In this document: piece after piece, positions 17,142-43,780 of the stretch
Layout: every line of letters starts with the position of its first letter
How positions within the stretch are numbered: position 1 is the stretch's first letter
IMG/VR virus record: IMGVR_UViG_3300018080_000138
Span: 32,709-96,708 of that record
DNA: 64,000 bases
Strand: one strand, 5' to 3'
Source of the DNA: a virus
The notes under the pieces: generated by a model
The model's input: only the letters and a program-made list of their open reading frames with translations
Database searches by the model: none
What the model was told of the DNA's origin: nothing
Made by a program: the position numbers and the translations under genes

Positions 17142-17221
17142 TAAAGATTCCTGTTAAATACAAAAAGGATGCATGGGCTGTTTTGAAAGATAAGGGAGTT
17201 GTGGTAGAATGGACAGAGTAG
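17138..17221 (+). pseudogene. internally deleted relic of the Cys-rich KIP...W family (MIKIPVKYKK...VEWTE)
   Basis: N- and C-termini match 24431-24781 but the Cys core is absent. Confidence 0.4.
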
Positions 17222-18519: not shown

Positions 18520-20210
18520 TTAAAGTAAAAAAAAAATGATTAGGCACTAAGATATTGATTTGTATTTATTCCTATTCTTATACAAGATAGTTTTAGGTCG
18601 TTCATTAACATGACCCGGAAAATTTAATAGAAATCGGACAGTAGTATTAATGTAAATTGAGACATTAGTACACTAAGAATATTTCCGGGTCATACTATTA
18701 TAGTGCATCTAATAGTAGTTGGATGGTAAAGAAAGTTAACGGTAAACATAGCGAGTAGTCAATGCTGATCAAAGTAAAGAATTTTTTATACATAATTAAA
18801 ATGTATTGTAAAAATGAGTGTATTGAGTATATCCATGTAAAGGAAATTTTAGTGGATGCTATACGTTTTGTTTTTAGGTCTCCTGTACAAGATAGATTGT
18901 TACGTTATCAAAGAAGGAATATAAGATCACCTGGTAGATAGGGATATGGATAAGATTTATAAAAATAGAATTGGTAGAGTACCAGTCGATATAGAGAATT
19001 AAACAGATAAATAGTCAGTTGGTAGCCCATTAAAAAATTAAGGTATAGTGATGGTGCACCGGCTGGCTATTTTTTATTTATACCTGGCCCGATGGTTAGT
19101 AATGGTAAAGTAAAAGTAAAGTTAGAAAATAATGTATAAGAAGAAAGGAAATAGGAATGAGTAAGTGTAAGATAAATAAAACAAGTAAAAGTATAGATAA
19201 AAAAACCAAGATTACCAAGCATAGCAGTCATAGGATATAGGAGTAACAGACAGAGACATGGTGAGGAGGGGGAAAAAGCCAACCGCGTTTACCTGGGGGC
19301 GGCGGTTAATCGAGTTATCAGTAATCTTTCCTACTCAGCATCATACTATCCTACCAAGTATTAAACCAGAGATAGCAAAGAAAATACTTACCCCGCATAT
19401 TAATGTAAAAGATCAGGTAAGACAAATAAACCAAATAGGTACTGCAACTTTACCATAGTTGAGGTTGATTTCAATACGAAGTTGACACACTACTAAAGAG
19501 AAGATGCAATAAGCGTGAAGTCAATAGCAAAAGTGGTATATAGTAAATAGAGTTGCCAAGTACGGTAAAAACTATATCATTTATTATAGATACAATATCT
19601 TAAAATCCTATATATTGTAGTAGTTTCTATATAATCAGGCAATATCTTAGATAGTTTTAGTGAACTTTCCGAGTATTTAGGCATTTTTAGGCATTTTTAG
19701 CGGAAAAACACGGTTATTCAGTAGAAATTAGCGGAAATAGTAGTATTTAGAGGGAATGTAGCAGTTTTAGCCTTAGAAATCCGCCTTAACTTGCTTTGGA
19801 GGGCATTTTTATAGGGTTGGTGGTTCAGTCGGTTACCATTAGGAATAGTAGTCGCTGATCAAAATTTTAGGCAATGGGATTTTTTAAGAATTTTAGGCAA
19901 GTTACGGCGGATTAGTCCACTTTTGTTACTTATTGTGAATAGTACAAGTATTCAGGCATGTATCTAAGAATGTTTTAGCATAAATGGTAGTTGGTCGTGT
20001 AAAATATAGAGTGGTTGAGGTAAGTCGGGTATATTGCCACTTGTTAACTTAAATGTAATAAGGTAGTTTGGTTCTCCAGAGTGATGTTATGATTAGTAGT
20101 GAGTAGAAATTGGCGCTCATTGGATGGGTATGTATGATTAAGTGTGGTAGGGAGGTATTATGTGAGTTTTATACTTGGTAATGTATCATGGGGTTAAGTC
20201 ATCATCACAT
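18520..20210 (+). ncRNA. candidate large structured non-coding RNA (alternatively a terminus/origin region)
   Basis: nearly ORF-free; nested imperfect inverted repeats with many G.T pairs at 18610-18693, 19009-19072, 19439-19563, 19567-19658, 19778-19913 and 20081-20208. Confidence 0.4.
19672..19776. repeat. 10-bp-phased TTTAG / GCATTTTTAG repeats
   Basis: TTTAG ends at 19680, 19690, 19700, 19750 and 19770. Confidence 0.55.
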
Positions 20211-20262
20211 ATAAAGGAAAGAGAAGTGAGAAAGTTGAATAAGTTATATGAGTAGGTGTTTG

Positions 20263-20278
20263 TGGGATGATTTTTGCA
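20263..20278 (+). promoter_or_regulatory. repeated promoter core, copy 0 (sigma54-like GG-N10-GC)
   Basis: TGGGATGATTTTTGCA, 37 nt before ATG 20315. Confidence 0.55.
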
Positions 20279-20314
20279 CTATATTTTTATGAATTAAACA
20301 AATGAGGTGACAAA

Positions 20315-20482
20315 ATGAAATATACAAAACGACCTTATGATAGAAAAACGATGATTTTCAAGGCCAATTATATACTATGCACTGCAATGCAAGACTACAC
20401 AGCCTTAAAGGAGGTCTTGTTGGAGGCCGTGGCCGATGGTATTATTTACCCTGAAAAAACTACAACTGATTCAATTATATAA
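20315..20482 (+). CDS. small early-like protein, 55 aa (MKYTKRPYDRK...), below the ORF-track cutoff
   Basis: RBS GAGGTGA; follows a promoter core; same MKYTK start as 20701. Confidence 0.6.
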   Translation: MKYTKRPYDRKTMIFKANYILCTAMQDYTALKEVLLEAVADGIIYPEKTTTDSII

Positions 20483-20503
20483 CATTTCATCGACTTAGTA
20501 AAA

Positions 20504-20683
20504 GTATGGAGTAAACTCCATACATTTTAGTCAAGAATCGGGCAGAGATTACATATTTTTCGGCTTATATAATATACCATAGTTATATATGGTCGTTAGG
20601 GGTCCTCTGTCTCATAAGGGAAAAAACTTCCTTTTCTTAGAAGGTTTGGGATGATTCTTGCAATATAATATAATGAAAATAAA
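20504..20683 (+). promoter_or_regulatory. promoter module, copy 1: palindrome plus core
   Basis: GTATGGAGTAAACTCCATAC at 20504-20523; TGGGATGATTCTTGCA at 20647-20662. Confidence 0.75.
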
Positions 20684-20700
20684 GATAAAGGAGTAAGAAA

Positions 20701-20895
20701 ATGAAATATACAAAGATCAAAATTAGGTTTACTGACAAAGACGGGAGTCTTGGAAAAACGGCAACTAAAACATTGTATAATGATAGTTACGATATGTATG
20801 AAAAAATTGTTGCCTATGCAGCTAAGCTACACAAACAACGGTTATTAGATGATGCATTGATTGCACAGTTGATGCAAGAGACCCCTTATAAATGA
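20701..20895 (+). CDS. hypothetical early-like protein
   Basis: RBS AAGGAG; downstream of promoter copy 1. Confidence 0.6.
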   Translation: MKYTKIKIRFTDKDGSLGKTATKTLYNDSYDMYEKIVAYAAKLHKQRLLDDALIAQLMQETPYK

Positions 20896-20917
20896 GTTAA
20901 ATGAGTACAAAATACCC

Positions 20918-21016
20918 GCCATCGAAGCCCAATAACTGGCAGAAATGTTAGCACATTTGGGTGGTATGGAAAGGTCGTAATAAGGCGGCAAGCCGGTTCG
21001 ATTCCGACCGATGGCA
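20918..21016 (+). ncRNA. tRNA-like RNA or degenerate tRNA
   Basis: perfect 7-bp acceptor stem GCCATCG/CGATGGC+A, GGTTCGATTCC T-loop, GCC/GGC D-like arm; 6-nt anticodon-like loop and ~30-nt variable region are non-canonical. Confidence 0.5.
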
Positions 21017-21040
21017 CAAAAAAACAAATGAGGTAATAAA

Positions 21041-21208
21041 ATGAGATGTAAACCGGGAACAAGAGTAAAATTTTATGACTATGATTTAGAAGTGGTACAG
21101 ATAGGAGTATATCTAAAACATTTTGCACCTTGTGTAATGTCAATTTATGTACCACTTGACGATAAGGTATACTATGTCAATGAAAATGATACTACACCTA
21201 TTAAATGA
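21041..21208 (+). CDS. small protein, 55 aa (MRCKPGTRVKFY...), below the ORF-track cutoff
   Basis: RBS GAGGT; open frame to TGA at 21206. Confidence 0.55.
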   Translation: MRCKPGTRVKFYDYDLEVVQIGVYLKHFAPCVMSIYVPLDDKVYYVNENDTTPIK

Positions 21209-21227
21209 TATACTCAGGAGGTATTAA

Positions 21228-21470
21228 ATGACGAATACTGATAAAGCATATATTAGTGCCAGGATGAGGATTAATTTTCCTGGTATAAAGCATAAAGATT
21301 TGGATAATGGCGTGGTGTTTCCAACACTGAGGTTTAGAGTGACTCAAAAAAATGAAAAATTTTATTTGGAGAGCGCAGCACGTGGATTATATTTTACTGT
21401 CAGAAGTTCGGAAAATGTTGTGCGAATTATGGATGAGTTAGTTGATGAAGTAAAATTTTGGACTGAGTAA
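21228..21470 (+). CDS. hypothetical protein
   Basis: RBS AGGAGG. Confidence 0.6.
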   Translation: MTNTDKAYISARMRINFPGIKHKDLDNGVVFPTLRFRVTQKNEKFYLESAARGLYFTVRSSENVVRIMDELVDEVKFWTE

Positions 21471-21526
21471 CTTGAAAAAAGGGGCTTAAAGGAACGTTGT
21501 ATAGAAATTGACCAAGAAAAGTAAAA

Positions 21527-21665
21527 GTATGGAGTTTATCCCATACAATTTGGTCAATAGTTAAGGATATTTCTCTATATGTTATTTTATGTGTGAGTGT
21601 GATTGTCCTCTCTGAGTTATTAACGGGAGTTACTATTACCCAGGAGGTTTGGGATGATTTTTGCA
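21527..21665 (+). promoter_or_regulatory. promoter module, copy 2
   Basis: GTATGGAGTTTATCCCATAC at 21527-21546; TGGGATGATTTTTGCA at 21650-21665. Confidence 0.7.
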
Positions 21666-21703
21666 TTATATTAATGTGAAAACAAAGACAAAGGAGTAAT
21701 AAA

Positions 21704-21892
21704 ATGAGAGTATATGTTAATACTGATAAATATAGATGGTCACACGGTAAAAAACCTCGTGGCAAAGGCCAATGGTGGTTTGAAATTGGTAGTGATGATT
21801 TTGGATTAAATGCAACTTATGGTGAGGCCGTAAAAGCTGCGAGGAAAAAAGCTGAGTTAGAAGGAGTTAATGAAATATATGTACTTCCATAA
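21704..21892 (+). CDS. small phage protein (SHGKKPRGKGQWWF motif)
   Basis: RBS AAGGAG; downstream of promoter copy 2. Confidence 0.65.
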   Translation: MRVYVNTDKYRWSHGKKPRGKGQWWFEIGSDDFGLNATYGEAVKAARKKAELEGVNEIYVLP

Positions 21893-21943
21893 ATGAAGCG
21901 ATAAGATGAAATACAATCGGCTGGAAAAAAGGAGTGTGGAATA

Positions 21944-22210
21944 ATGTCAGTAACAAGGGAACAAATAAAAGAGGCATTACACGCAGTATTAGCACAGAGG
22001 GAAAGGGATGATTTGAATAAATTGTTTATTACAGATGTTAAGAATCATCTTTCACAGGCTAATAAAAATGGTGAAACGTTAACATACATTAAATGGCGGA
22101 ATAGAACGGAATTCAAACTGAAAGCATCTATCACAGCAATCATGGCACAGTTTTCGGCAGCAGGATTTAATGTTGAGTGGTGTGGTACACATAATTTTGA
22201 AATTTGGTAG
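21944..22210 (+). CDS. hypothetical protein
   Basis: RBS AAGGAG. Confidence 0.6.
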   Translation: MSVTREQIKEALHAVLAQRERDDLNKLFITDVKNHLSQANKNGETLTYIKWRNRTEFKLKASITAIMAQFSAAGFNVEWCGTHNFEIW

Positions 22211-22440
22211 ATGTACTATGTCAATATAAATGATGTCATAGTCCTTTAGTAGTGTACTCAGGAGGTATTAATGGATGAAGTGTTATTTTGTTGTAAGTGG
22301 TGTAAGCATTTAAACCTATTAATTGGGATTTACAAAGATTACTTAGTTAATACCTTAAAAATAAGGAAAGAAGAATATTAGATGTTGGCAGGGAATACAT
22401 AAAGATCAGAAACAGTCATAATCTATTTAAAGGTGATGAA

Positions 22441-22887
22441 ATGCAAGGTGAAATCAGTAGACAGAATGCTCTTCGGTATATATTAGCGGGTAATGCAATC
22501 ATTACCATGAAGAACATTAGCACTGGTAATAGGTTCACTTATAAAATAAGTAAATTGAAAAAGAAATATCAGCAAACGAATAAGTCAACCGATATTTATT
22601 GGGTAAGAGTGTTAACATGCCCAAATAATACAAGGGGGTATCGGTTTTTCGGAACAGTATTTGTTAATGGTTCAGTTAATTTTAAAGTATCAAATAAAAG
22701 TAAAATTTCAAAAGATGCGCAAAGTGTTCGTGTTTTTCATTATTGTTTATATCATCTAACTAAGAATGATTTATCTGATGATGTAAAATTTTACCATGAA
22801 GGGTATTGTGGTCGTTGTGGTCGATTGTTAACTGTCCCTGAGAGTATTGTTGCAGGATATGGACCAATCTGCATTAATTTAATTTAA
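22441..22887 (+). CDS. DUF6011-like zinc-finger protein
   Basis: TGNRFTYKI; C-terminal CGRCGRLLTVPESIVAGYGPIC. Confidence 0.75.
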   Translation: MQGEISRQNALRYILAGNAIITMKNISTGNRFTYKISKLKKKYQQTNKSTDIYWVRVLTCPNNTRGYRFFGTVFVNGSVNFKVSNKSKISKDAQSVRVFHYCLYHLTKNDLSDDVKFYHEGYCGRCGRLLTVPESIVAGYGPICINLI

Positions 22888-22907
22888 TAATATAATGAGG
22901 TATTGAG

Positions 22908-23114
22908 ATGTTTAATTTTCCAACTGAAGAAGAAATTAATGAATTTTATGCAGAAAGAAAAAATTCAACACTTGTTAAATCCGAGAATGAAAAAGTCCTT
23001 AGAGAACTTGCGATAATGTATAAACAAAGTCCATTTACATTAGATGTATTTAAAAAAATGGTTTTGAATAATTTAAACATTCTGACCACCGTCTATAAGG
23101 ATATAGTCGGATAA
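22908..23114 (+). CDS. hypothetical protein; paralog of 24220
   Basis: FPTEEEINEFYA vs LPTKKEVDEFYA. Confidence 0.6.
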   Translation: MFNFPTEEEINEFYAERKNSTLVKSENEKVLRELAIMYKQSPFTLDVFKKMVLNNLNILTTVYKDIVG

Positions 23115-23130
23115 TAAATGAGGTGATAAA

Positions 23131-23325
23131 ATGGGCAGTTTAGTTGTTTTAAAACGTTATAAAGAGCCGGATGCTGAGTGGTTTCCAACAACACTTGCCG
23201 AGTGCATTGAGCATACAGAGGGTTCAGGTTATTGGGGAAAAGACACAGTAACCTATTTACTAAGTACTGGTAATGTTGTATGGACTCCATTTGCAGAGTA
23301 TAAAAGAGGAGAAACAGATGCATAA
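23131..23325 (+). CDS. hypothetical protein
   Basis: RBS GAGGTGA. Confidence 0.6.
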   Translation: MGSLVVLKRYKEPDAEWFPTTLAECIEHTEGSGYWGKDTVTYLLSTGNVVWTPFAEYKRGETDA

Positions 23326-23575
23326 AGTAATAAAAAATGCTAAGCTGGTAGAAATAAGGAGTGATGGTGCTCAAAAATATGAGTATGATGATCCAACAGA
23401 GGAGTTTCCAGCGGTGTGGCTAACAGGGATTCAACGAGCAAGTAATCCGGAGATAGGAATGGTTGGCGACCTCGTTTATAGGAAATTTAGGTCAGGTGCA
23501 TGGTTTATGTTTAGAAGGTATCCTATAAAAAGAGTGAAGGAGAATGAAGATGATACGGATGGTAGTATTAACTAA
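23318..23575 (+). CDS. hypothetical protein
   Basis: RBS AGGAG before ATG 23318. Confidence 0.55.
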   Translation: MHKVIKNAKLVEIRSDGAQKYEYDDPTEEFPAVWLTGIQRASNPEIGMVGDLVYRKFRSGAWFMFRRYPIKRVKENEDDTDGSIN

Positions 23576-23600
23576 GAAACGTCTCATGGAAATTAAAAAA

Positions 23601-23834
23601 ATGTCAAAAGTAAAAGTCAACACGGATGAATATAAAAAGGTTCATGGTAAATGTCCGGATAATAATACGGATGCTATTTAGACGGTTAGTATAGATGGTA
23701 TAGTGAAAGATAGATCATTTTCAGTATATCTAAATTGTTTAACTATAAATAATAAGAAAGCTACGGTAAAAGAATTAGAGCCGTTACGTAGAGGCGCAAA
23801 AAATGGATTAGATGGGTTAAAAAGGAAAATATAA
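23601..23834 (+). pseudogene. paralog of 21704-21892 interrupted by an in-frame TAG
   Basis: KVKVNTDEYKKVHGKCP matches RVYVNTDKYRWSHGKKP; TAG at 23679-23681, then the frame continues to TAA at 23832. Confidence 0.5.
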
Positions 23835-23835
23835 A

Positions 23836-24204
23836 ATGAACATATATGTTGAAACTATTGTACCTAATAAGTATAGTGTTAAGTTATTAGGCTATAATGC
23901 AGTATTACATTATAAGGTAGTTGATAATCCTATGGATATAATTAATGAAATATTTACAGGTATTGGGTGGTATTTAGATATGAAAGAAATGTTTAATGAT
24001 GATCCTGAAAGTATTTGTGTCAACCAAGATAAGTTACAGGGTGAACAGATTGTAGGGCGGACTGTTGAAATAAAAGATGGTTTTTGGAATGCTGGTTACC
24101 GTGGGATGGTTACTGAGTATGAAGGCATTGTTGGCTGGTACACGGTTATCATTAATGAAATTAGTTTTATCTATGTACGTGACGAATTTGTTGTACTTAA
24201 TTAG
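23836..24204 (+). CDS. hypothetical protein with a C-terminal KOW/SH3-like segment
   Basis: VGRTVEIKDG..AGYRGMV. Confidence 0.55.
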   Translation: MNIYVETIVPNKYSVKLLGYNAVLHYKVVDNPMDIINEIFTGIGWYLDMKEMFNDDPESICVNQDKLQGEQIVGRTVEIKDGFWNAGYRGMVTEYEGIVGWYTVIINEISFIYVRDEFVVLN

Positions 24205-24219
24205 ATAAGGAGATTTTTA

Positions 24220-24416
24220 ATGAAGACATTACCTACAAAGAAAGAAGTCGATGAGTTTTATGCCGCATATGGTACTACTAATTTTTATGTAATGGATGCC
24301 GATAAAAAAGTAAAAGAAATTCTTACACAGCTATATAAAGAGGGTTTTTAACCAAGGCCTCATTTACAAAGGTTGTACTGAAAAATATTAGGGATATGAA
24401 CGGTTAAATAGTATAG
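24220..24416 (+). pseudogene. paralog of 22908 split by a -1 frameshift (or programmed slip)
   Basis: frame 0 ends GAG GGT TTT TAA at 24351; -1 frame gives FLTKASFTKVVLKNI, matching FTLDVFKKMVLNNL. Confidence 0.45.
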
Positions 24417-24430
24417 TTAGTGGAGATGGT

Positions 24431-24781
24431 ATGAGAAAAATAAAAATACCTATAAAGTATAAGGAACAATTAGAGGCAAGATTTGATCCAAAAAACCTTA
24501 TTTGTGATTTTTCAACAAATAATTATTACATTAGAATTCCATGTCCATTATGCGAGGATTATGGAGGTAATTTGGTTTGTAGTAATTGTCCATTTCGTGA
24601 ACCTATAGATTTATGCAAAGTTGATAGTTCTTGCGGGGGTTTTGTTGAAGACATTATTGGTTTACCTAAATTTTCTTGGACAAAAGCAGACATAATAATA
24701 CATAAGACATTATATAATCAGGCTGTTGAGCAATTAATTGAACTCAGAAGTAAAGCAAAGGAGTACATTGAGTGGGTATAA
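24431..24781 (+). CDS. Cys-rich zinc-binding protein, family member 2
   Basis: KIP, CPLC...CSNCPF...C. Confidence 0.6.
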   Translation: MRKIKIPIKYKEQLEARFDPKNLICDFSTNNYYIRIPCPLCEDYGGNLVCSNCPFREPIDLCKVDSSCGGFVEDIIGLPKFSWTKADIIIHKTLYNQAVEQLIELRSKAKEYIEWV

Positions 24782-24783
24782 AA

Positions 24784-24962
24784 GTATGGAGTATACCCCA
24801 TATAATTTGGTTAAAAGTATGGGATAAACTCCATACTTTTGTAATAAAATAAACAACTAATTTTATAGAGCCGGTATATTCCCGGCAAACCCTTACAATA
24901 AAAATGCTCATTTCTTAGAAGGTTTGGGATGATTCTTGCAATATAATATAATGAAAATAAAG
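24784..24962 (+). promoter_or_regulatory. promoter module, copy 3 (two palindromes)
   Basis: palindromes at 24784-24803 and 24817-24836; TGGGATGATTCTTGCA at 24925-24940. Confidence 0.75.
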
Positions 24963-24997
24963 ACAAAAAATAACAATTTAAAATATGAGGCATTAAA

Positions 24998-25183
24998 ATG
25001 AAACGCAAGGTCAGTAAAAAAGAAATGGAATTATATATAGAGCCAGCAGAAAAAATATATAATTCGATGTCAGTAGTAGAGTTTGACTTATTAATTCAAG
25101 CCGCAAAAAATCGAGCAGACAAGTTTAATAAAGGAACAGTTGCAAAAGATACATTGAGATCAATTGTAGTTCCAGAAGATTGA
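24998..25183 (+). CDS. hypothetical early-like protein
   Basis: downstream of promoter copy 3. Confidence 0.6.
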   Translation: MKRKVSKKEMELYIEPAEKIYNSMSVVEFDLLIQAAKNRADKFNKGTVAKDTLRSIVVPED

Positions 25184-25296
25184 AGCCATCTGACCTTTAT
25201 AATAATGAAGTCGGGGAGTGGCGTGGGCATGGTTATTGTACACAATAAGTAGGTTAGATTTCGGTCAATGACGTTAAAGTAGAGGAGTATGATAAG

Positions 25297-25521
25297 ATGA
25301 ATAATCAAACATTCATTAATAATCATATAGGGGTACAACAGCATAAAAGTAAGTACAAAGATTTATATGTTGTTACTGTTAGGTCTAAACTTGTTGTTAG
25401 ATTATTGAAGGAACGATTTGAGATTTCCACTAAGCGGGGTAAAGTAGTAAAATTTGATCAAGGTGAACTTGACATATTAAAGCGACTGATACTACAACAT
25501 TATTTAGATAATAACTATTAA
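25297..25521 (+). CDS. hypothetical protein
   Basis: RBS GAGGAG. Confidence 0.55.
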   Translation: MNNQTFINNHIGVQQHKSKYKDLYVVTVRSKLVVRLLKERFEISTKRGKVVKFDQGELDILKRLILQHYLDNNY

Positions 25522-25546
25522 CCATAAAATTGGATGAGGTGATAGA

Positions 25547-25900
25547 GTGGTACAGCAGTTGAGTTCGATTGAGAAGCGGTTAACAATACAATATAATAGT
25601 TCGATGTTGCATGAGCTTAAGACAGAATTGGAATCAAGAGGGATTACATTAAGTGTTATTGAGTTTAATGTAAAATTGGCGGATTATATCATTAAACCAT
25701 TACCGTTAGCGTTGTTATGCTCGTTTAATACGGAGGAGAAGGTATATAAATACAGGGTGACGGTTGCCGATAATAAGTATGTTATTGTTGATGGTGATGG
25801 TTTGGCAGTTGCAAGGACTTCGGCGGTTGATTATGCAGTTGATGAGATAATTGATGATGTTGTTTTTAGTGTAACATCAATAAAAGGAAAAGATAAATGA
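25547..25900 (+). CDS. hypothetical protein
   Basis: RBS GAGGTGA; GTG start. Confidence 0.55.
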   Translation: MVQQLSSIEKRLTIQYNSSMLHELKTELESRGITLSVIEFNVKLADYIIKPLPLALLCSFNTEEKVYKYRVTVADNKYVIVDGDGLAVARTSAVDYAVDEIIDDVVFSVTSIKGKDK

Positions 25901-26382
25901 ATGAACTTAGTAGACAAAAAAAGGTGGAAGTATTATATCAACTACAATATGTTGAACCTGTTATTGTACGGGATAAGACAGTGGCAAGTAAAACTGTGGG
26001 GTGTCCTGAGGATATAGTAAATATTTTACGTGAGCTGAAGTATGCTGCAGTTGAAAAGTTTATTGGTGTATATCTTGACTCAAGAAATCATGTTTTAGCG
26101 GTATCAATTTTACATGTTGGCGGTATTACGGAAACAGTAGTTGATCCTAAAATAGTATTTGGAATGGCATTTTTATGCAATGCTACTGCATTGGTGGTAG
26201 TACATAACCATCCATCCGGGAATAATGCGCCAAGTGACAAAGATAAAGAAATGACAAGAAAACTTGTTACATGTGGTGATTTTTTAGATATAAAGTTATT
26301 TGATCATATTATAATAGGTAGTGATGGATATTATTCATTTGCTGAATCTTTGGGCGATGAATTACTCATTGGTCGACATTGA
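25897..26382 (+). CDS. RadC-like JAB-domain protein
   Basis: EKF..YLD, VHNHPSG..PS..D, LFDHIIIG, YYSF. Confidence 0.9.
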   Translation: MNELSRQKKVEVLYQLQYVEPVIVRDKTVASKTVGCPEDIVNILRELKYAAVEKFIGVYLDSRNHVLAVSILHVGGITETVVDPKIVFGMAFLCNATALVVVHNHPSGNNAPSDKDKEMTRKLVTCGDFLDIKLFDHIIIGSDGYYSFAESLGDELLIGRH

Positions 26383-26409
26383 TTTAGTAGTAATAGATTG
26401 GAGGATGTA

Positions 26410-26628
26410 ATGGCAGCAAAGTTGAATAAGTTGCTTAGTGGTAGTATTAGGCAGTCAGATTATACCCCTGGTACATTGAAGCGATTGGCAAAAAAGACTG
26501 CAAATGATTTTAACGCAATTCAATACAATTACGCAATTAGACATTCTGCAAAAACACATCAAATGTTATTAGTGGTTGACATGATGCTAAAAAGTTTGAA
26601 ATTAGTCACACATACAGTAGTTTTATAG
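26410..26628 (+). CDS. hypothetical protein
   Basis: RBS GGAGG before ATG 26410. Confidence 0.55.
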   Translation: MAAKLNKLLSGSIRQSDYTPGTLKRLAKKTANDFNAIQYNYAIRHSAKTHQMLLVVDMMLKSLKLVTHTVVL

Positions 26629-26643
26629 TAAAAGGAATGTATT

Positions 26644-27051
26644 ATGAAACCAGAAAAAGTGTACTTGGTCGATGTGGATGATGTTTTTTTGGCGGGTTTA
26701 TCAAGATCACAGAGGTCTCGTATTAAATCAAGGGGATATATTATTTTTGGCTATCATAGACAACAAATTAACGTGAATTATGATAACATTGATTTTGAGA
26801 TAAAAGATATAAGAAAAATTGTTGGTAGTGAACTTCATAAGTATATTTCCTATGGCCATTATTATTTTGATGACATTGTGTCGGAGGTAGTCTATAATTT
26901 TCTAAGAAAGTCGGGAAAAATAAAGAAAAATGCCATAGGTTTTTTAAGATCAATAACAAAATCAACATGTATGAATTTTTGTAAAAAGTCATGGGCTGTG
27001 AAGGAATATCCAATGACAGGAGTTGGAATAGATGAAAGAAATATACAATAA
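26644..27051 (+). CDS. protein with a sigma70/ECF region-2-like segment and no region 4
   Basis: DDIVSEVVYNFL...GFLRSITKSTCMNFCKK resembles the ECF region 2 pattern. Confidence 0.4.
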   Translation: MKPEKVYLVDVDDVFLAGLSRSQRSRIKSRGYIIFGYHRQQINVNYDNIDFEIKDIRKIVGSELHKYISYGHYYFDDIVSEVVYNFLRKSGKIKKNAIGFLRSITKSTCMNFCKKSWAVKEYPMTGVGIDERNIQ

Positions 27052-27068
27052 GGAATAGTATAATTATT

Positions 27069-27287
27069 ATGAAAAAAATAAAAATAACGAACAATGTTCA
27101 TTTTATATTGGAACATGAGCTATTAGTAGTTTCATTTCCGTCGGGAACAATAGTCGGTTATAGAAGGTATCCAAAAGAATTGGATAAAACGGTTATTATT
27201 GATTGGTTGGAAAAGAATTTTGGTACAAAGATAGCCCATGATTACTTGGATAAAATTTTAAGTGACCAGGATTTGGAATGGGAATAA
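27069..27287 (+). CDS. hypothetical protein; paralog of 27653
   Basis: TIVG/TILG and WL...FG...A shared. Confidence 0.55.
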   Translation: MKKIKITNNVHFILEHELLVVSFPSGTIVGYRRYPKELDKTVIIDWLEKNFGTKIAHDYLDKILSDQDLEWE

Positions 27288-27299
27288 TTTAGTCATGTT

Positions 27300-27482
27300 A
27301 ATGTATGGAGTATACTCCATACATTTTAGTCAAGAATTGGGCATAGATTACATACTTTTGTGCCTATATGACATGTTATAGTTATATATAGTAGGTGTGA
27401 GCCTTTTGTCCCATGTTAGAAAAAACTTCCTTTTCTTAGAAGGTTTGGGATGATTCTTGCAATATAATATAATGAAAATAAA
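27300..27482 (+). promoter_or_regulatory. promoter module, copy 4
   Basis: perfect 26-bp palindrome AATGTATGGAGTATACTCCATACATT at 27300-27325; core at 27446-27461; 64 bp identical to copy 1. Confidence 0.75.
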
Positions 27483-27498: not shown

Positions 27499-27612
27499 AT
27501 GCAGAAAAAATATGAGGAATTAATTAAGCGATTGGATGCCATGTATTTGGCGGCAATAGAATTATCAAAGAGGTATGATAAAATTTTATCATATATTTTG
27601 GATGAGAAATGA
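27499..27612 (+). CDS. 37-aa peptide (MQKKYEELIKRL...) directly after promoter copy 4
   Basis: ATG at the same spacing from the core as in copies 0-2. Confidence 0.4.
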   Translation: MQKKYEELIKRLDAMYLAAIELSKRYDKILSYILDEK

Positions 27613-32355: not shown

Positions 32356-32759
32356 AAAAGTATATAGGTATTTTATTTTTGATTTTATTATTACCTGGTT
32401 GTTCTTTAATTAGGAAGACAGTTATCATGTCACCATTACAGAAGTCAGTAACGAAGTTGGAGTTTAGGGGTGTCGGCCCATTAACATTTTCTTTGAAGAA
32501 TTGGTCTGATGTTACTGTTAGATGGGTGATGTATTTACCTGGGACATATAGTTGGATTTTGATAAAACCAGCTGAAGGAAAAATAGAGCCTGGTGAAAGT
32601 CAGTTGATATGGGTTAGAGTTGATCCTAAATCCATTAAAGGTGAAGGGATGCATATGGGAGTAATAACATTGCTTTCGGATGTAAATGATGTGATGATAC
32701 CCGTTTTTTACTTTAAAATAAGTAGTGGTGAGTTTGATTGGAAATCGGAGGAGATTTGA
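32352..32759 (+). CDS. putative lipoprotein with a BACON/Ig-like domain
   Basis: lipobox LPGC; W...SWI.I.P..G.I.PGESQ.I.V.VD pattern. Confidence 0.6.
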   Translation: MKKYIGILFLILLLPGCSLIRKTVIMSPLQKSVTKLEFRGVGPLTFSLKNWSDVTVRWVMYLPGTYSWILIKPAEGKIEPGESQLIWVRVDPKSIKGEGMHMGVITLLSDVNDVMIPVFYFKISSGEFDWKSEEI

Positions 32760-36960: not shown

Positions 36961-37913
36961 TGAGAATAGTGTTTATAAATTGTATTAATAGTTTTAAGAA
37001 TGAAGCCAGTTCACATAGGTTTTGGGCTGAAGAATTTTTAAACCAGGCATCAGATATATTATTCTTAACAAAACATAATTGGAATATTAATGAGATAGTA
37101 AATTTTAAACCACAACATATTCATTTTGCAAGTGACGCGTTGCCAAGAAGTGTGTGGATGCCGGTAAATAAAATTAAGAAATTAAGAAATAAATTAAATA
37201 GTGCTAAATTAAACACAGTGATCACTTCATATAGGGGTGGTGTTGGAAAGGAAGGTGAACTACTTGAGGTATTAAATGGTTTAGTGGATAAAGCTTTTGG
37301 TTCAACAGATTTTTACAGTAATCAGGAGTGGTTACCAACGGCGTCAAATCCATTATTTTGGAATGGGGTGAGAAGGGGCGGTTTATGTGGTATCATATAT
37401 ATTGGACATGCTTCAGAGGAGCATATAAAGATAATGCGAAAAAGAGGTATTTATTTTACAAAACATAAGTATTTAAAGGCATTACAAGGGCGGACAAAAT
37501 TAACCGTAGTTGGATCTGGATGGAAACGATTTGGTATAAGGCATGAGATACCAACTAATACGTATGAGCAGAATAGAAATTATTATTTAAACTCGACGAT
37601 CGGATTGAATATAGTTCATGATGATTTACGAAAATATACAAAATACTTTTCTAATAGATTAATTCACATGATGCAAACAGGACTTCCATGTATTACACCA
37701 TACCAACCTAACTTAGAAAAAGTGTTTAAATATGGTGAAGTCATTATGTATAAGAACATTAATGATTTATTATTAAAGGTTATTTATTATTTGGATGAGA
37801 CAAATAGAGATGAGTTACGTAGAATAGCCGCAAAAGGAAAGCATCTTGTATCTACTGTTTGGAATCCGAAAAACTTAGTTAGAAAAATATTAAGTGTTGA
37901 GAGGAAGCAATGA
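36957..37913 (+). CDS. CgeB-like (Glyco_trans_1_2) glycosyltransferase, paralog 1
   Basis: KPQHIHF, VVGSGW, IGLN, YFSNRL..MMQTG, IAAKG. Confidence 0.8.
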   Translation: MMRIVFINCINSFKNEASSHRFWAEEFLNQASDILFLTKHNWNINEIVNFKPQHIHFASDALPRSVWMPVNKIKKLRNKLNSAKLNTVITSYRGGVGKEGELLEVLNGLVDKAFGSTDFYSNQEWLPTASNPLFWNGVRRGGLCGIIYIGHASEEHIKIMRKRGIYFTKHKYLKALQGRTKLTVVGSGWKRFGIRHEIPTNTYEQNRNYYLNSTIGLNIVHDDLRKYTKYFSNRLIHMMQTGLPCITPYQPNLEKVFKYGEVIMYKNINDLLLKVIYYLDETNRDELRRIAAKGKHLVSTVWNPKNLVRKILSVERKQ

Positions 37914-38065
37914 GAAAAATATATAAAGTTTTATTACTACTTAAGTTAGGTTTGTTTATTATGTTATATTATATTATTCATTTTGTATTTAAGTGGTTTA
38001 AAAGATGTTATTATAAAATTTTTACTTTAGTGAGAGGTAGTAATGAAGGTAGTATACATAAATAA
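37910..38065 (+). CDS. 51-aa membrane peptide, below the ORF-track cutoff
   Basis: ATGA overlap with the previous gene; hydrophobic stretch. Confidence 0.4.
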   Translation: MRKIYKVLLLLKLGLFIMLYYIIHFVFKWFKRCYYKIFTLVRGSNEGSIHK

Positions 38066-38969
38066 AGATTTGGTATTAAGTAATAATGTATTTTTAAAGA
38101 AGGAGTTTGTAAGGCAAAGTACAAATTTTAAGCATATAAACACATCTGCATGGTCTCCAAAACGAATAGCAATATTAAAGCCAGATCATATTCATTTTAG
38201 TTCTGCCGCACAACCGGTAGAAAAATGGATTAAGATTGAAAAAATAATGGAGTTGCGGAAGTTGTTACCAGGTTGTGTGATAACTCATTTTTATGCAGAC
38301 GCACTTAAATCATCAGATTACAGAAAGAAACTTATACAGTTAATGGATAAATCTTTTTACAGTTATGATTATCCAGGAGCTGAGTGGATGCCAGTTCCGA
38401 CTGCAATAGATTTTTGGAACAGAGAAAGACAGACAGGAAGGTATGGAATTATTTTTGTTGGGAATGTATATGAGAAACATCTACAGAAGTATAAAATAAA
38501 GTATGATAGACAATTATATTTAAAGGAAGTATTAAGACATCATCGTGTTACTGTGGTTGGTAATAAATGGGATAAATATTATGGGATACCTCAAAAGAAG
38601 AGAACAGTAAACTATGAGCAAACAAGGGATTATTACTTAAACTCAACGGTTGGATTAAATTTAATAGTATCAGGTTTATGGAATCTTTCAAGATGTTGGT
38701 CTGCAAGACTTACACATATGATGTTGGTAGGATTGCCATGCTTTACACCAAGAGTTAAAGGTATTGACTCTGTATTTACTACTGGTGAAGAGGTTATTTT
38801 ATATGATTCGATAGATGATTTGATTATGAAGATGGATTATTTTATGAAGAGGTCAAAATTGTTAGAACATATAGGAATTAAAGGAAGAATAAAAATGATG
38901 TCACTTGCCGATGTAAGGTTGGCTGTGATGAAAATTTTAGATACAAGGAGGGATTATGATAAGAGGTAG
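38043..38969 (+). CDS. CgeB-like glycosyltransferase, paralog 2
   Basis: KPDHIHF, FVGN, VGLN, WSARL. Confidence 0.8.
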   Translation: MKVVYINKDLVLSNNVFLKKEFVRQSTNFKHINTSAWSPKRIAILKPDHIHFSSAAQPVEKWIKIEKIMELRKLLPGCVITHFYADALKSSDYRKKLIQLMDKSFYSYDYPGAEWMPVPTAIDFWNRERQTGRYGIIFVGNVYEKHLQKYKIKYDRQLYLKEVLRHHRVTVVGNKWDKYYGIPQKKRTVNYEQTRDYYLNSTVGLNLIVSGLWNLSRCWSARLTHMMLVGLPCFTPRVKGIDSVFTTGEEVILYDSIDDLIMKMDYFMKRSKLLEHIGIKGRIKMMSLADVRLAVMKILDTRRDYDKR

Positions 38970-41409
38970 TCTTGATGTGACGTTTGACAGTACGAGATGT
39001 TTATTAACTGTAGTGCATAGTGGTAATACATGGGTGTCTGGTGGTAATTTTTTGATACGATCAGTAGATGGTATGGAGTATGGAATAGACGATATTACTA
39101 TAGAATCGTCCACCTTATTGGTAGATACAGATAGTACTTCATTTGATATTTTTATTTATAGTAATGGCAGCAGTTTGCTTGTATCAGTCACAATAGTTGC
39201 TTGTGAAGATGGTACACTTATCATTAAATATAATAAATCAGTTACTGTTATGGATGTTGAGTTACCTTTGACCATTGGTGCGTCAAAGGGGTGGGGGAAT
39301 ATGTTAATAGATCCGAGTAAATATTCAGGTACTGGTGGTATCAGACCACTTAATACTGATGTGAACATTTATGCAAGATTGTACGATAGTAATGAGTTAT
39401 ACTATCGTATGTGGGGAATAATAGATAATACAGTTGGCAATGGATTTGTTGCTATGACAGATAGTGTTGATTTTGACTTCGAGTGCAAGACAATAGATGG
39501 CCGTGTGTATCCTGGAGTAAGGTGGTTGCCAAGTATGGGGTCATTTATAGGTGGAACAATAGTGTATAAATTTGTGGATAAATTGTGTTTTAATACTGCT
39601 GCTAAGATATATGAGAAATTTTTAATAGAGAATAATTTAATAAAAACGTTGGATGAGAAGAAAAAAGAGTATCCGATTCCGCCTTGGGATGCTATTAAAA
39701 AATGCGTAGTATTTACACGTTATATTACTGAAGTTAATAAGGTGGATGGTCAGTGGAAGAGGAGATTTAGATTTACTTTCGATAAAGTTGCTGAGCAAGC
39801 AATTTGGTTTTCTAATCAATTAGGAAGTGGGTATAAAGTGCTTGTTCATATTAGAGAGTGGCATGAAGGTGAACTTGCAGATGGTGGGTCTTGTTATGAC
39901 TTGCGTTATAATGGCCCAAATGAACAAGCAGGTGGTTGGAATGGTTTTATTGATATGGCAAATAGAATTCATGCCTTTGGAGATTATCTTTATTTTTACG
40001 ATTGTTACGATGACGTTGCTATTAATAGTTATATTTATGATACATATCCGGAGATAGTTTTATTGGATGTGCATGGAAGAGAGGTTAGACATTCACATTG
40101 GAAAGGTGGTAATGGTCCGTTTGCAAAGGTTTGTCCAACACAGCGTTTAAATCTTTTAAAAAGAAATATTGAGTTTTTGAAGGATAAAGGTGTTAATATT
40201 AGTACAATTTATATTGATCTTGATGGTGGGAGGCAACTTTTAGAATGTTACTCAGAGTATCATGACCATGGTATTTATGGTGATAGTAAGACAGGAAGTT
40301 TATCAAGGCAAGGTGCACTTGAAGCTTTACAGGATACATATAGGTGGCTTGCATCTAATGGGGTTATTGGGTTTACTGAGCATCCATGTGATTGGATATG
40401 GCCAATTTTAGGTGGATCATTTTTTCATGGACCTTGGACAAAACATCTTGATAATGTAAGGAATGGTAGGTGTATTCCATTCATTCCATTAGTGGCTGGC
40501 AGTGCAATTACAGGTGGTGCATATGTTGATACTTATCATAATATGCCAAAAAATGATGCGTTATTGCAGATTTTATGGGGAGGGTACCCAATAGCCCGTG
40601 AAGCATTGGAGGGTGATGTTAGTTGGTCAAAAATGATTACCGATATCCATAAGAAGGTAGGGTTTAAAACACCAATATCATATTCATCTGATGGACATGG
40701 ACGGTGTACTATGGTGTATAATGATTGTACCGTTTATGTGGATTTTGGTAATGAAAGTTACTCGGTAACGGAGTATGTAGACCCGCCGGAAGACCCGCCG
40801 GAAGACCCGCCGGAAGACCCGCCGGAAGACCCGCCGGAAGACCCGCCGGAAGATGGTATTACAAAGGTGAAAGATATATTTGTTAAATATGATGGAAGTC
40901 TTTGTGGAGTGGCAGTAAAGTTTGAATCTATGTCTTCTGGTTTAAAAGAGATATGGGCAATGGTAAAGAATCATGGAGATATTTATTGGAATACAAAATA
41001 TTACCACCAGGTTGTTGATTCTGAGTTGGAAAGGAATTTTGGATTTAGGTATATTGGTGATACATTTCTTTTGAAATTGAGATTTAAACATGAGGATCAA
41101 ACAAAGACATTTTATTCGGATACAATAGAGGTAAGCAGAGAAAGTGAGTTTGATTTGGAGCTGTACTTTAGGAGAGAAGTACAGAAAACTATACAAGTTT
41201 TTTCAAATAAGGATGTAAGTGGAAAATTACATATAATAAATACTGATGGTATAGTTGTTTATGAGATAGTGGATAATTTAAATGTTGGGTGGAATCCATT
41301 TAGTATAGATAAATTAATAAGTAATGGTACATATTTTTGCGCATTTATTAGAAGTGAAAATAATCAAGTATATTACTTGGGTGCACTTATATTTTCCGGA
41401 AGTAATTGA
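38956..41409 (+). CDS. glycoside hydrolase-like protein (GH101/GH129/DUF5696-type barrel) with a DPPE linker and C-terminal Ig-like domains
   Basis: PNEQAGGWNGF, YIDLD, FTEHPCDW, IPFIPLV; C-terminal LHIINTDG.VV...G....I..L..GTYF. Confidence 0.55.
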   Translation: MIRGSLDVTFDSTRCLLTVVHSGNTWVSGGNFLIRSVDGMEYGIDDITIESSTLLVDTDSTSFDIFIYSNGSSLLVSVTIVACEDGTLIIKYNKSVTVMDVELPLTIGASKGWGNMLIDPSKYSGTGGIRPLNTDVNIYARLYDSNELYYRMWGIIDNTVGNGFVAMTDSVDFDFECKTIDGRVYPGVRWLPSMGSFIGGTIVYKFVDKLCFNTAAKIYEKFLIENNLIKTLDEKKKEYPIPPWDAIKKCVVFTRYITEVNKVDGQWKRRFRFTFDKVAEQAIWFSNQLGSGYKVLVHIREWHEGELADGGSCYDLRYNGPNEQAGGWNGFIDMANRIHAFGDYLYFYDCYDDVAINSYIYDTYPEIVLLDVHGREVRHSHWKGGNGPFAKVCPTQRLNLLKRNIEFLKDKGVNISTIYIDLDGGRQLLECYSEYHDHGIYGDSKTGSLSRQGALEALQDTYRWLASNGVIGFTEHPCDWIWPILGGSFFHGPWTKHLDNVRNGRCIPFIPLVAGSAITGGAYVDTYHNMPKNDALLQILWGGYPIAREALEGDVSWSKMITDIHKKVGFKTPISYSSDGHGRCTMVYNDCTVYVDFGNESYSVTEYVDPPEDPPEDPPEDPPEDPPEDPPEDGITKVKDIFVKYDGSLCGVAVKFESMSSGLKEIWAMVKNHGDIYWNTKYYHQVVDSELERNFGFRYIGDTFLLKLRFKHEDQTKTFYSDTIEVSRESEFDLELYFRREVQKTIQVFSNKDVSGKLHIINTDGIVVYEIVDNLNVGWNPFSIDKLISNGTYFCAFIRSENNQVYYLGALIFSGSN
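40780..40851 (+). repeat. perfect 12-bp tandem repeat GACCCGCCGGAA x6 (DPPE)
   Basis: read directly from the sequence. Confidence 0.95.
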
Positions 41410-41958: not shown

Positions 41959-42875
41959 AATTAGTATTTATTAATCCCATATTGCCAAGAAGTAATGGAA
42001 GATTTTGGAAATTGGCATTTGTTAAACATGTAGATAGTATGTTACATATAAAAAATGAAAATTGGTCAGTAGATAGTATACTTAAGTTTAAGCCAGATCA
42101 TATTCATTTTAACTCAGCGGCTCAACCTGTTGAAAGATGGATACCTGTGAGTAAAATAAATATGATTAGAAGATCACTACCAAATATAGTAATAACAACT
42201 TATTATTGTGATGCATTAAAAAGTATTAGGTATCGGAAATTACTGAATACTATAGTAGATTGTGCATATTGCTCATATGATTTACCTAATTGTACGTGGA
42301 TGCCAGTACCTGCCGATATTAATTTTTGGAAACCTATGTTGGGGCCCGATAAAAAAACTATATTATTAGTATTTTTAGGTAATAATTATACTGACTTGGC
42401 AAATAGTCAAGGAATAGAGTTTACACGGGCAAGAACATTAAAACTTGTTAGTAAGTATTATGATATAAAAATTGTCGGGAGTAAGTGGTCACAATATGGG
42501 TTAAAGTATGACCGCCCAACCAATACGTATGAGCAAGCAAAAAGTTATTATGACAGATCATTTGCAGGCATTAATATTGTTAATAATGGTATAAAGCATC
42601 TGAGTAGGTGCTGGTCAAATAGACTTACCCATATGATGTTAATGGGACTCACTTGTTTTACACCAAATGTTAAGGGTATTAGAAATGTTTTTGGCAGTAA
42701 AGATGATATATTAGTAGTATATGATAATGATAATGATTTAGTAGAAAAGTTACATTTTTATATGTCTGATAAAAAGTTATTGGTAGACATTGGAAGTCGT
42801 GCAAGGAAATTTGCAGTAAAAAATTTTGATATTAATGTTGCAGTTAAAAAAATACTTACAAGGAAAAAGAATTGA
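41955..42875 (+). CDS. CgeB-like glycosyltransferase, paralog 3
   Basis: KPDHIHF, FLGN, WSNRL. Confidence 0.8.
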   Translation: MKLVFINPILPRSNGRFWKLAFVKHVDSMLHIKNENWSVDSILKFKPDHIHFNSAAQPVERWIPVSKINMIRRSLPNIVITTYYCDALKSIRYRKLLNTIVDCAYCSYDLPNCTWMPVPADINFWKPMLGPDKKTILLVFLGNNYTDLANSQGIEFTRARTLKLVSKYYDIKIVGSKWSQYGLKYDRPTNTYEQAKSYYDRSFAGINIVNNGIKHLSRCWSNRLTHMMLMGLTCFTPNVKGIRNVFGSKDDILVVYDNDNDLVEKLHFYMSDKKLLVDIGSRARKFAVKNFDINVAVKKILTRKKN

Positions 42876-43780
42876 TAAGGTTAGTATATGTACATCCAGA
42901 TATTAAGCATGAGTCACATAGATTTTGGTATGTCGCTTTTTCGTCAAATGTAGATCATATTTTATGGATTAAAAATAGTGATTGGACAACAAGAAAGATT
43001 GCACGGTTTAAACCAACGCATATTCATTTTGGTTCAAGAGCATCACCAAGAGAACGATGGATGCCTATAAATAAAATAATAAAATTAAGAAATTTATTAC
43101 CAAAAGTAGTGATCACTTCATATAGGGGTGGTGTTGGTACTGAAGTAGATTATCTTGAACGGTTAAATAAAATAATAGATTGTGCCTTTGGTGCAACCGA
43201 TTCTTATCGAGGACAAAGATGGATGCCGGGCGGATCAAGTTTTAATTTCTGGGCACGACCACGACAGGCTAATCCTAAGCAGCAATTAATTTTTATTGGT
43301 AGGGCATATAAAAATGACAGAGCAGAAAGGGCACACCTTGTCAAAGAAGTACAGAGTAGGTTTCCACTTACTGTGCTTGGTAATAATGCCTGGAAAAATT
43401 ACGGTGTTAAGGTTGCATCATATACAGGAACATTTGAAGAAAATCGTTTGTTTTATTGTACATCACTTATGGGTATAAACTTTGTTAGCAAAAAGTATTT
43501 ACACCTAAGTAAATATTTTTCAAGTAGATTAATTCACATGATGCAAACAGGACTTCCATGTATTACACCATACCAGCCAGGAATGGCACAGGTATTTAGA
43601 GATAAGGAAGATATATTTTATTACAGAAATAAACATGAGTTATTTAGTTTATTACGGTGTTATTTAAATCGTGAAAATAGGAATTTATTAGAAGTAGTAG
43701 GAAAAAGAGGTAAGTTGGTATCAAGAAAATATGATGTAAATAATCTTGTTAAACAAGTATTAAGCATAAGAAGGAGGTAG
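42872..43780 (+). CDS. CgeB-like glycosyltransferase, paralog 4
   Basis: KPTHIHF, FIGR, YFSSRL..MMQTG. Confidence 0.8.
   Translation: MIRLVYVHPDIKHESHRFWYVAFSSNVDHILWIKNSDWTTRKIARFKPTHIHFGSRASPRERWMPINKIIKLRNLLPKVVITSYRGGVGTEVDYLERLNKIIDCAFGATDSYRGQRWMPGGSSFNFWARPRQANPKQQLIFIGRAYKNDRAERAHLVKEVQSRFPLTVLGNNAWKNYGVKVASYTGTFEENRLFYCTSLMGINFVSKKYLHLSKYFSSRLIHMMQTGLPCITPYQPGMAQVFRDKEDIFYYRNKHELFSLLRCYLNRENRNLLEVVGKRGKLVSRKYDVNNLVKQVLSIRRR

Follow-up and report, generated by a model that had tools for sequence, protein, structure and literature searches.

We analysed the last 64 kb of the 96,708-bp IMG/VR virus record IMGVR_UViG_3300018080_000138 (64,000 nt, positions 32,709 to 96,708 of the record; hereafter the window, in whose numbering all coordinates are given). 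In this window a 16-nt motif, TGGGATGATTYTTGCA, stands in front of successive blocks of small genes between 20263 and 27500. A preliminary description of this DNA had reported five copies of the motif, each 37-58 nt before an ATG, and had read them as sigma-54-type promoters with upstream enhancers. The five copies are exact (zero mismatches) and are located as follows:

20263 to 20293, plus strand: copy 0, core TGGGATGATTTTTGCA, then C, TATATT and N3-ATGAA; ATG at 20315
20647 to 20677, plus strand: copy 1, core TTGGGATGATTCTTGCA, then A and TATAAT; ATG at 20701
21650 to 21680, plus strand: copy 2, core TTGGGATGATTTTTGCA, then T and TATATT; ATG at 21704
24925 to 24955, plus strand: copy 3, core identical to that of copy 1; ATG at 24998
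27446 to 27476, plus strand: copy 4, core identical to that of copy 1; ATG at 27500, which begins a 37-codon frame

Measured from the end of the motif, the next ATG follows at 37, 39, 39, 58 and 39 nt for copies 0 to 4, in agreement with the preliminary description. All copies are on the coding strand, before a start codon bearing a Shine-Dalgarno site, at the head of a gene block:

20315 to 20482 (one gene), 20701 to 21470, 21704 to 24781, 24998 to 27287, and from 27500, plus strand: gene blocks, with one copy heading each

These five 16-mers are the sole copies in the whole 96,708-bp genome, even when one mismatch is allowed. In shuffled sequence 0.12 matches are expected at two mismatches, and five were reached in 0 of 100 shuffles. 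Nearly all products of the blocks are without a family match, the exceptions being a DUF6011 protein (22441 to 22887) and a RadC-like JAB protein (25897 to 26382). The 'early' and 'takeover' roles proposed for these blocks are suggested by gene size and the missing homologues.

The ends of the record are identical over 54 bp, which indicates a circular-type assembly. All sizeable genes are on the plus strand, where G strongly exceeds C, and the G+C content is around 31%. The genome encodes a tape measure protein, a portal, a family A DNA polymerase, a DnaB-like helicase and an exonuclease, no integrase or resolvase was detected in it, and strong GGAG/GAGG boxes precede the start codons across the promoter region. 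We infer a virulent-type tailed phage whose host uses Shine-Dalgarno sites. The ribosome-binding sites and the purine skew suggest that this host is possibly a member of the Bacillota.

Copies 1-4 lie in homologous cassettes of about 190 bp, each consisting of a palindrome, an AT-rich spacer, the putative promoter and a leader. For example, the first and the last of these are duplicates of each other:

20498 to 20683, plus strand: cassette 1, duplicate of cassette 4 (27297 to 27482); repeat family D2, 186 nt, 85% identity

The first two genes (20315 to 20329 and 20701 to 20715) both start with ATGAAATATACAAA (MKYTK; family D12), and therefore the cassette duplication appears to have run into the coding start.

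Given these relationships, the core exists in effectively three independent versions: copies 1, 3 and 4 together form one, and copy 0 and copy 2 one each. Copy 2 and copy 1 are 71% identical over 68 nt, yet the 16-mer core of the copies is identical at 15-16 of 16 positions. The flanks of copy 0 diverge more than those of copy 2. Conservation has a sharp onset at TGG, and 3′ of TTGCA it takes in TATAWT after one free base and RTGAA after another three, giving a conserved block of around 35 nt. Under even decay of the cassettes such a block would have a probability of about 1e-4 (our own binomial estimate). This pattern indicates that the core is under constraint. Gene conversion among the copies could contribute to its conservation.

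The constrained core has the layout of a sigma-54 promoter. As first noted, GG and GC lie 10 nt apart in 5/5 copies (TGG-N8-TTGC). Within the 16-mer only one position varies (Y), and it belongs to the N4 spacer of the sigma-54 consensus, which is not read by sigma-54. We scored the genome with a weight matrix for which 12 sigma-54 promoters of Bacillus thuringiensis (PMC4428206, Table 2) served as the training set. Copies 1-4 are the top four matrix sites genome-wide on either strand, with 17.3-18.8 bits compared to 17.1-26.7 for the training promoters. Unrelated low-GC phage DNA has about 2 sites of at least 17.3 bits, the score of copy 1, per million positions, and a shuffled genome has about 0.15. 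Copy 2 is the best site of the genome (18.8 bits); it has no good sigma-70 hexamer pair and is identical at 16 of 17 positions to the promoter of the B. thuringiensis sox (sarcosine) operon, TTGGCATGATTTTTGCA. Copy 0, which ends an 856-bp non-coding stretch and belongs to repeat family D6, scores 13.6 bits and ranks 6th in the genome. In the phage the ATG follows the -12 box by 37-58 nt, in line with the 32-55 nt between -12 box and start codon in the first ten operons of the B. thuringiensis table (PMC4428206). The sigma-54-type promoter core of the preliminary description is thus borne out by a constrained block and by the genome's best-scoring family against a Bacillus matrix. On balance, these comparisons tip us slightly towards the five motifs being sigma-54 promoters. 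Among other promoter types examined by eye (SigB, SigH, extracytoplasmic function (ECF), Bacteroidota-type and extended -10), none gave a fit consistent across copies.

Sigma-54 polymerase opens DNA only with an ATP-driven activator that answers a cellular signal. The preliminary description had proposed looking in the genome for an AAA+ protein with a GAFTGA motif or for a sigma-54 homologue; six-frame profile searches of the phage for transcription factors found neither. The sole match to Sigma54_activat (PF00158), at 10.8 bits, is the AAA+ domain in the clamp-loader gene, and the motifs GAFTGA and DxDGD are absent from every open frame. A match to Sigma54_DBD (14.6 bits, sub-threshold) inside the exonuclease gene was treated as noise. 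The six frames also hold no sigma-70 region 2 or 4 and no sigma-70-family factor, and no T7-like RNA polymerase was detected in them, the control of that last search being blank. No transcription factors of known families are thus found in the phage, and therefore its transcription would rest on the host polymerase, with either host factors or family-less phage proteins. A host activator supplying the activation is possible.

Family-less phage proteins are the starting point of a different explanation, in which the motif represents a phage-specific promoter class. A divergent sigma or a MotA/AsiA-like appropriator would direct the host polymerase to the 16-mer, acting either on the host core or on a sigma-70 holoenzyme that uses the TATAWT box, and would come from earlier genes, for example those behind the TTGAAA-N16-TGgTAGAAT promoter at 17183. 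The conserved block of around 35 nt does span the start region, and among region products that are nearly all without a family an undetected factor could exist. In addition, nine phage-motif promoters of YuA, which infects Pseudomonas aeruginosa, are silent without phage factors (10.1101/2023.10.13.562163). Nevertheless, no frame of the genome has a sigma-70 region 2/4, a sigma-54, a T7-like polymerase or DxDGD, and a phage-specific class leaves the 16/17 identity to a Bacillus sigma-54 promoter unexplained. We consider this explanation quite improbable. The sequence at 17183 to 17210 (TTGAAA-N16-TAGAAT with a preceding TG, TGgTAGAAT) is the only intergenic sigma-70 match of at least 10/12 having the TG motif, and could represent a genuine early promoter of SigA type that serves the genes from 17285.

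Upstream of copies 1-4 lie palindromes with the consensus AAAA-GTATGGAG-TWWA-CTCCATAC-(A)TTT. Their starts at 20504, 21527, 24784, 24817 and 27303, and their distances to the motif, are as the preliminary description gave them, and site 24817 is indeed the exact reverse complement of site 21527. The sites, none of which is assigned to a strand, are the following:

20504 to 20523: S1, GTATGGAG-TAAA-CTCCATAC with AAAA and ATTTT flanks; 21 nt past the stop at 20482 and 143 bp before copy 1
21527 to 21546: S2, GTATGGAG-TTTA-TCCCATAC, imperfect; 123 bp before copy 2
24784 to 24803 and 24817 to 24836: S3a and S3b, starts 33 bp apart; 141 and 108 bp before copy 3
27303 to 27322: S4, GTATGGAG-TATA-CTCCATAC, perfect, extending to 26 bp; 15 nt past the stop at 27287 and 143 bp before copy 4
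27336 to 27355: a second, degenerate site, ATTGGGCATAGATTACATAC, matching the consensus at 13/20; it follows S4 by 33 bp, the register in which S3b follows S3a

The loose pattern GTATGG-N8-CCATAY alone shows no excess over chance (15 matches versus 9 expected). The five sites that are perfect or nearly so do form a genuine family, with common flanks and homologous cassettes. The stretch of cassette 1 that is homologous to the degenerate second site (20537 to 20556) matches the consensus at 10 of 20 positions; a MAFFT alignment places both stretches under S3b, suggesting decayed second sites in cassettes 4 and 1.

We asked whether these palindromes behave as binding sites or as RNA hairpins. 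Their centres lie around 100-135 bp before the -24 box (about -125 to -160), and their orientation is free, S3b being S2 inverted. The half-sites are identical in 7 of 10 cases; the variants GTATGGGA (twice) and ATATGGGG (once) break the pairing and are uncompensated. T9 and A12 of the palindrome centre are invariant, though they are hairpin-loop positions. The uncompensated variants and the invariant centre argue that the sequence rather than RNA pairing is kept. We give no statistical weight to the proposed offsets of 'whole helical turns': taken modulo 10.5 they spread over 4.5 bp, for three independent cassettes.

The palindromes lie in the range where enhancers are found, but their position and shape equally suit a terminator or a 3′-end hairpin. 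S1 forms an RNA hairpin of -13 kcal/mol (z -6.0) with a terminator-like flag on both strands, S4 one of -14.1 kcal/mol, and each of these is trailed by four U. S3a and S3b pair together as RNA into a hairpin of -30 kcal/mol, followed by UUUUGU. Promoter 0, which has no nearby preceding gene block, has no palindrome, and we counted this toward a terminator. Counted against a terminator are the weak hairpin of S2 (-7.5 kcal/mol, z -1.8), the AT-rich stem bases and the short U runs (3-4 U). The one clear canonical terminator found in the genome, on the coding strand at 1868 to 1910, is unlike the palindromes, with a 36-nt hairpin of -18.8 kcal/mol and seven T. We regard the role of the palindromes as enhancers as plausible, leaning a little to the doubtful side. 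The enhancer and terminator roles are not exclusive and may coexist.

Palindromes that terminate transcription are also part of a second explanation of the whole array, which refers to PeSLs. PeSLs are small composite terminator/promoter cassettes of T4-like phages, and the name denotes an early promoter (PMC2839356, PMC4122927). Four of the units described here have the PeSL-type layout of a repeated stem-loop and a promoter between small variable genes. The motifs would then be early promoters for the host sigma-70/SigA, with TTGGGA as -35 and TATAAT as -10, the palindromes would be intrinsic terminators or 3′-end hairpins, and the sigma-54 likeness would be a coincidence kept by duplication and gene conversion. 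For early phage genes, transcription with the host's main sigma factor is the usual case. Duplicated cassettes that reach into gene starts show the behaviour of recombining cassettes (PMC4122927), and hairpins of -13 (S1), -14 (S4) and -30 kcal/mol (the S3 pair) lie after stop codons with A-run and T-run flanks. The preliminary description had credited two copies with TTGGGA-N17-TATAAT. The pair fits three copies (20647, 24925 and 27446), not two, and fails at 20263 and 21650. In the three that fit, at 20646, 24924 and 27445, it reaches 10/12 and is among the best intergenic sigma-70 matches of the genome. Moreover, TATAWT stands one base after TTGCA in all copies, is -10-like and is unexplained by sigma-54.

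Nonetheless, copies 0 and 2 have no acceptable hexamer pair and a perfect 16-mer. A sigma-70 promoter would also place 11 conserved bases in the spacer, where sigma-70 needs no sequence. The probability that such a promoter would also have G4, Y7, G8 and TTGCW in the sigma-54 register is about 1e-5 (our own estimate from base composition). Because TTGGCA resembles TTGACA and the downstream DNA is AT-rich, a sigma-70-like match comes nearly free with a sigma-54 promoter; the converse is false. If TATAWT instead serves as the -10 box, it lacks both a -35 box and a TG in the proper place, so that this version of a sigma-70 promoter needs a helper. As noted above, S2 is a poor hairpin, and the canonical terminator looks quite different from the palindromes. 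We judge host sigma-70 promoters in PeSL-type cassettes to be the chief rival explanation, unlikely but still deserving serious weight.

Together with the hexamer pair and the TATAWT box, several points weigh against sigma-54 promoters with enhancers. The sole deviation of all five copies from the B. thuringiensis promoters, a G after GG where these have C in 10/12 and T in 2/12, puts the phage copies at the low end of real promoters. The five copies share one ancestor, and the sigma-54 match is therefore in effect one observation, not five. Copy 0 is without an upstream palindrome, and the palindromes of the other copies begin 2-56 nt past stop codons and are flanked by A runs and T runs, which is the arrangement of terminators. 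No AAA+ activator was found within the phage genome itself. Only DNA assemblies occur among the runs containing the phage, with no RNA runs listed. Finally, no close relatives were found in the collections searched.

The search for relatives covered several collections. The region was compared by megablast with 50,697 phage records, without a match. Scans of IMG/VR seeded with proteins (the ligase, the DUF6011 protein, the RadC-like protein and the portal) returned one distant contig, with 43% identity, non-syntenic and with the motif absent. An alignment-seeded scan returned 80 loci, each of which has at most 4 proteins in common with the phage; homologues are also found on contigs of 92-99 kb, which were left out of the relative comparison. 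The 16-mer itself has 91 single matches in IMG/VR, a number due to chance only, and a 19-base version of the motif has 6 matches in the metagenome collection, all unrelated. Metagenomes of sediment and of seawater contain the same strain: in contigs of four other runs, a single A-to-G difference, at 19720, is seen within 8.6 kb. With one base difference among four other runs, the strain has no microdiversity usable for comparison. The assemblies of other samples break at the cassette repeats. In the host search, no tRNA genes were found in the phage, its clamp protein groups with viral proteins, and a genome scan seeded with RmlB gave no host information.

We also looked for the palindrome in bacteria. 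The preliminary description had proposed scanning candidate hosts for it. A pairing of the exact palindrome with a sigma-54-like box was found in no bacterial genome of a collection of 185,579 species. In this collection the exact palindrome occurs in 113 stretches, about the number expected by chance (our own estimate), and it is not enriched in any AT-rich bacterial genome. The only multi-copy bacterial matches come from the CAZMCW01 and JBCCOX01 assemblies, both with 45-52% GC. There, a repeat element that has the core GTATGGAGCTAGCTCCATAC and spans at least 80 bp is found on at least 14 contigs of one assembly (uncultured bacterium) and on 6 contigs of the other (Deinococcota). This element is unrelated to the phage and has only 16 specified bases in common with it.

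A repeat with the same palindromic core in two bacterial assemblies, together with the duplication of the cassettes, could be taken to mean that the 16-mer and the palindromes are not promoter elements at all. They would instead serve as signals for recombination or RNA processing, or be left over from a small mobile element that spread through intergenic spaces. Every copy occupies the coding strand and precedes, by a fixed 37-58 nt, a start codon bearing a Shine-Dalgarno site at the head of a block, which argues against such an origin, and the small overlap with a bacterial repeat that sits in 45-52% GC DNA argues against it as well. We find this explanation very hard to credit.

We return to sigma-54. 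In our proposal, a single promoter module is present five times, as the five motifs, and each copy would start a small-gene block in a variable, early-looking region. Most probably, the host sigma-54 (RpoN/SigL) RNA polymerase recognises this module as a -24/-12 promoter, with TGG at -26 to -24, TTGCA at -15 to -11 and a predicted start around 12 nt after GC (near 20289, 20673, 21676, 24951 and 27472 for copies 0 to 4). The leaders would be 26-47 nt long and carry strong Shine-Dalgarno sites. Because the phage encodes no detected activator ATPase, firing would need a host enhancer-binding protein. The candidate activator sites are the GTATGGAG-N4-CTCCATAC palindromes, the only conserved upstream candidates. 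The four palindrome units are duplicated cassettes, and the array also behaves like the PeSL composite cassettes.

In its full form, this model describes a virulent phage of a probably Gram-positive-type sediment bacterium that would hold a whole small takeover/accessory block under host sigma-54. A host enhancer-binding protein would bind at the palindromes, infection would be gated by a metabolic or stress signal of the host, and duplication would spread the cassettes in the manner of a mobile sigma-54 unit. We put this complete scenario forward tentatively, as a possibility that falls short of being probable. Early transcription of phages is usually ascribed to the main sigma factor of the host or to a phage polymerase. 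If the model is true, part of the phage programme would be conditional on the state of the host, and the blocks may fire only with the host activator on. The value of this single case, for which no relatives were found, is limited.

Other features of the window are worth recording. The 856-bp non-coding stretch before copy 0 (19459 to 20314) contains the iteron-like GGCATTTTTA three times and AATTTTAGGCAA twice, 26 bp apart, as well as a 17-nt inverted repeat (19778 to 19794 and 19897 to 19913, 94% complementary); this stretch may be a replication origin or a packaging region. Between 20896 and 21040, an intergenic sequence resembles the 3′ half of a tRNA (GGTTCGATTCC and an acceptor-like end), with no tRNA call by ARAGORN and no Rfam match even at E = 1; no Rfam families were found in the window. 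A 21-nt inverted repeat at 18610 to 18693 (81% complementary, arms 42 nt apart, core GACCCGGAAA / TTTCCGGGTC) lies in a 265-bp intergenic space. Further downstream, the 12-nt tandem repeat AGACCCGCCGGA occurs around seven times at 40767 to 40862, inside an 817-residue frame without a family match. Several DNA stretches of 37095 to 38765 are 70-84% identical to stretches of 42078 to 43644 (families D5 and D8-D14), and paralogous genes link 36.1-39.0 kb to 42.0-43.8 kb, a region termed the glycosylation block by another reader.

Each part of the array can be compared with a known system. The enterobacterial glnAp2 promoter has a pair of NtrC sites, one near -140 and the other near -108, some three helical turns from each other. 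The S3a and S3b sites are likewise 33 bp apart, at around 100-130 bp before the -24 box. In contrast to glnAp2, the other cassettes retain one good site, the half-site sequence is unrelated and the phage sites are putative.

The Bacillus SigL promoters share with the phage copies the TTGG...TTGCA frame, an AT-rich setting and many Shine-Dalgarno sites. Unlike the B. thuringiensis promoters, the phage has five copies of one sequence before unrelated small genes, and G after GG. PeSLs resemble the cassettes in having repeated stem-loop and promoter units between small variable genes, A-run and T-run flanks and duplication within the genome. They differ in that the gap between hairpin and promoter is 108-143 bp here and the core fits sigma-54.

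Phage use of sigma-54 is rare but documented. The preliminary description knew of 'no well-described case', a statement that does not hold: two papers, both citing Ceyssens et al. 2008, report phage YuA of P. aeruginosa to be strictly dependent on host sigma-54 (PMC5053324; 10.1101/2023.10.13.562163). As far as these accounts describe it, YuA is, like the present phage, a virulent-type tailed phage without its own sigma-54, in which a host sigma-54-type promoter stands beside other promoter classes. The two phages are unrelated and belong to different host groups. In the same accounts one promoter region of YuA (P015) is tied to sigma-54, compared to an array of five here, four of them with upstream palindromes. 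Beside this one cultured case, as it is reported there, the array, with its cassettes arranged in series and duplicated, would provide a clear example at the level of sequence in an unrelated lineage that is AT-rich.

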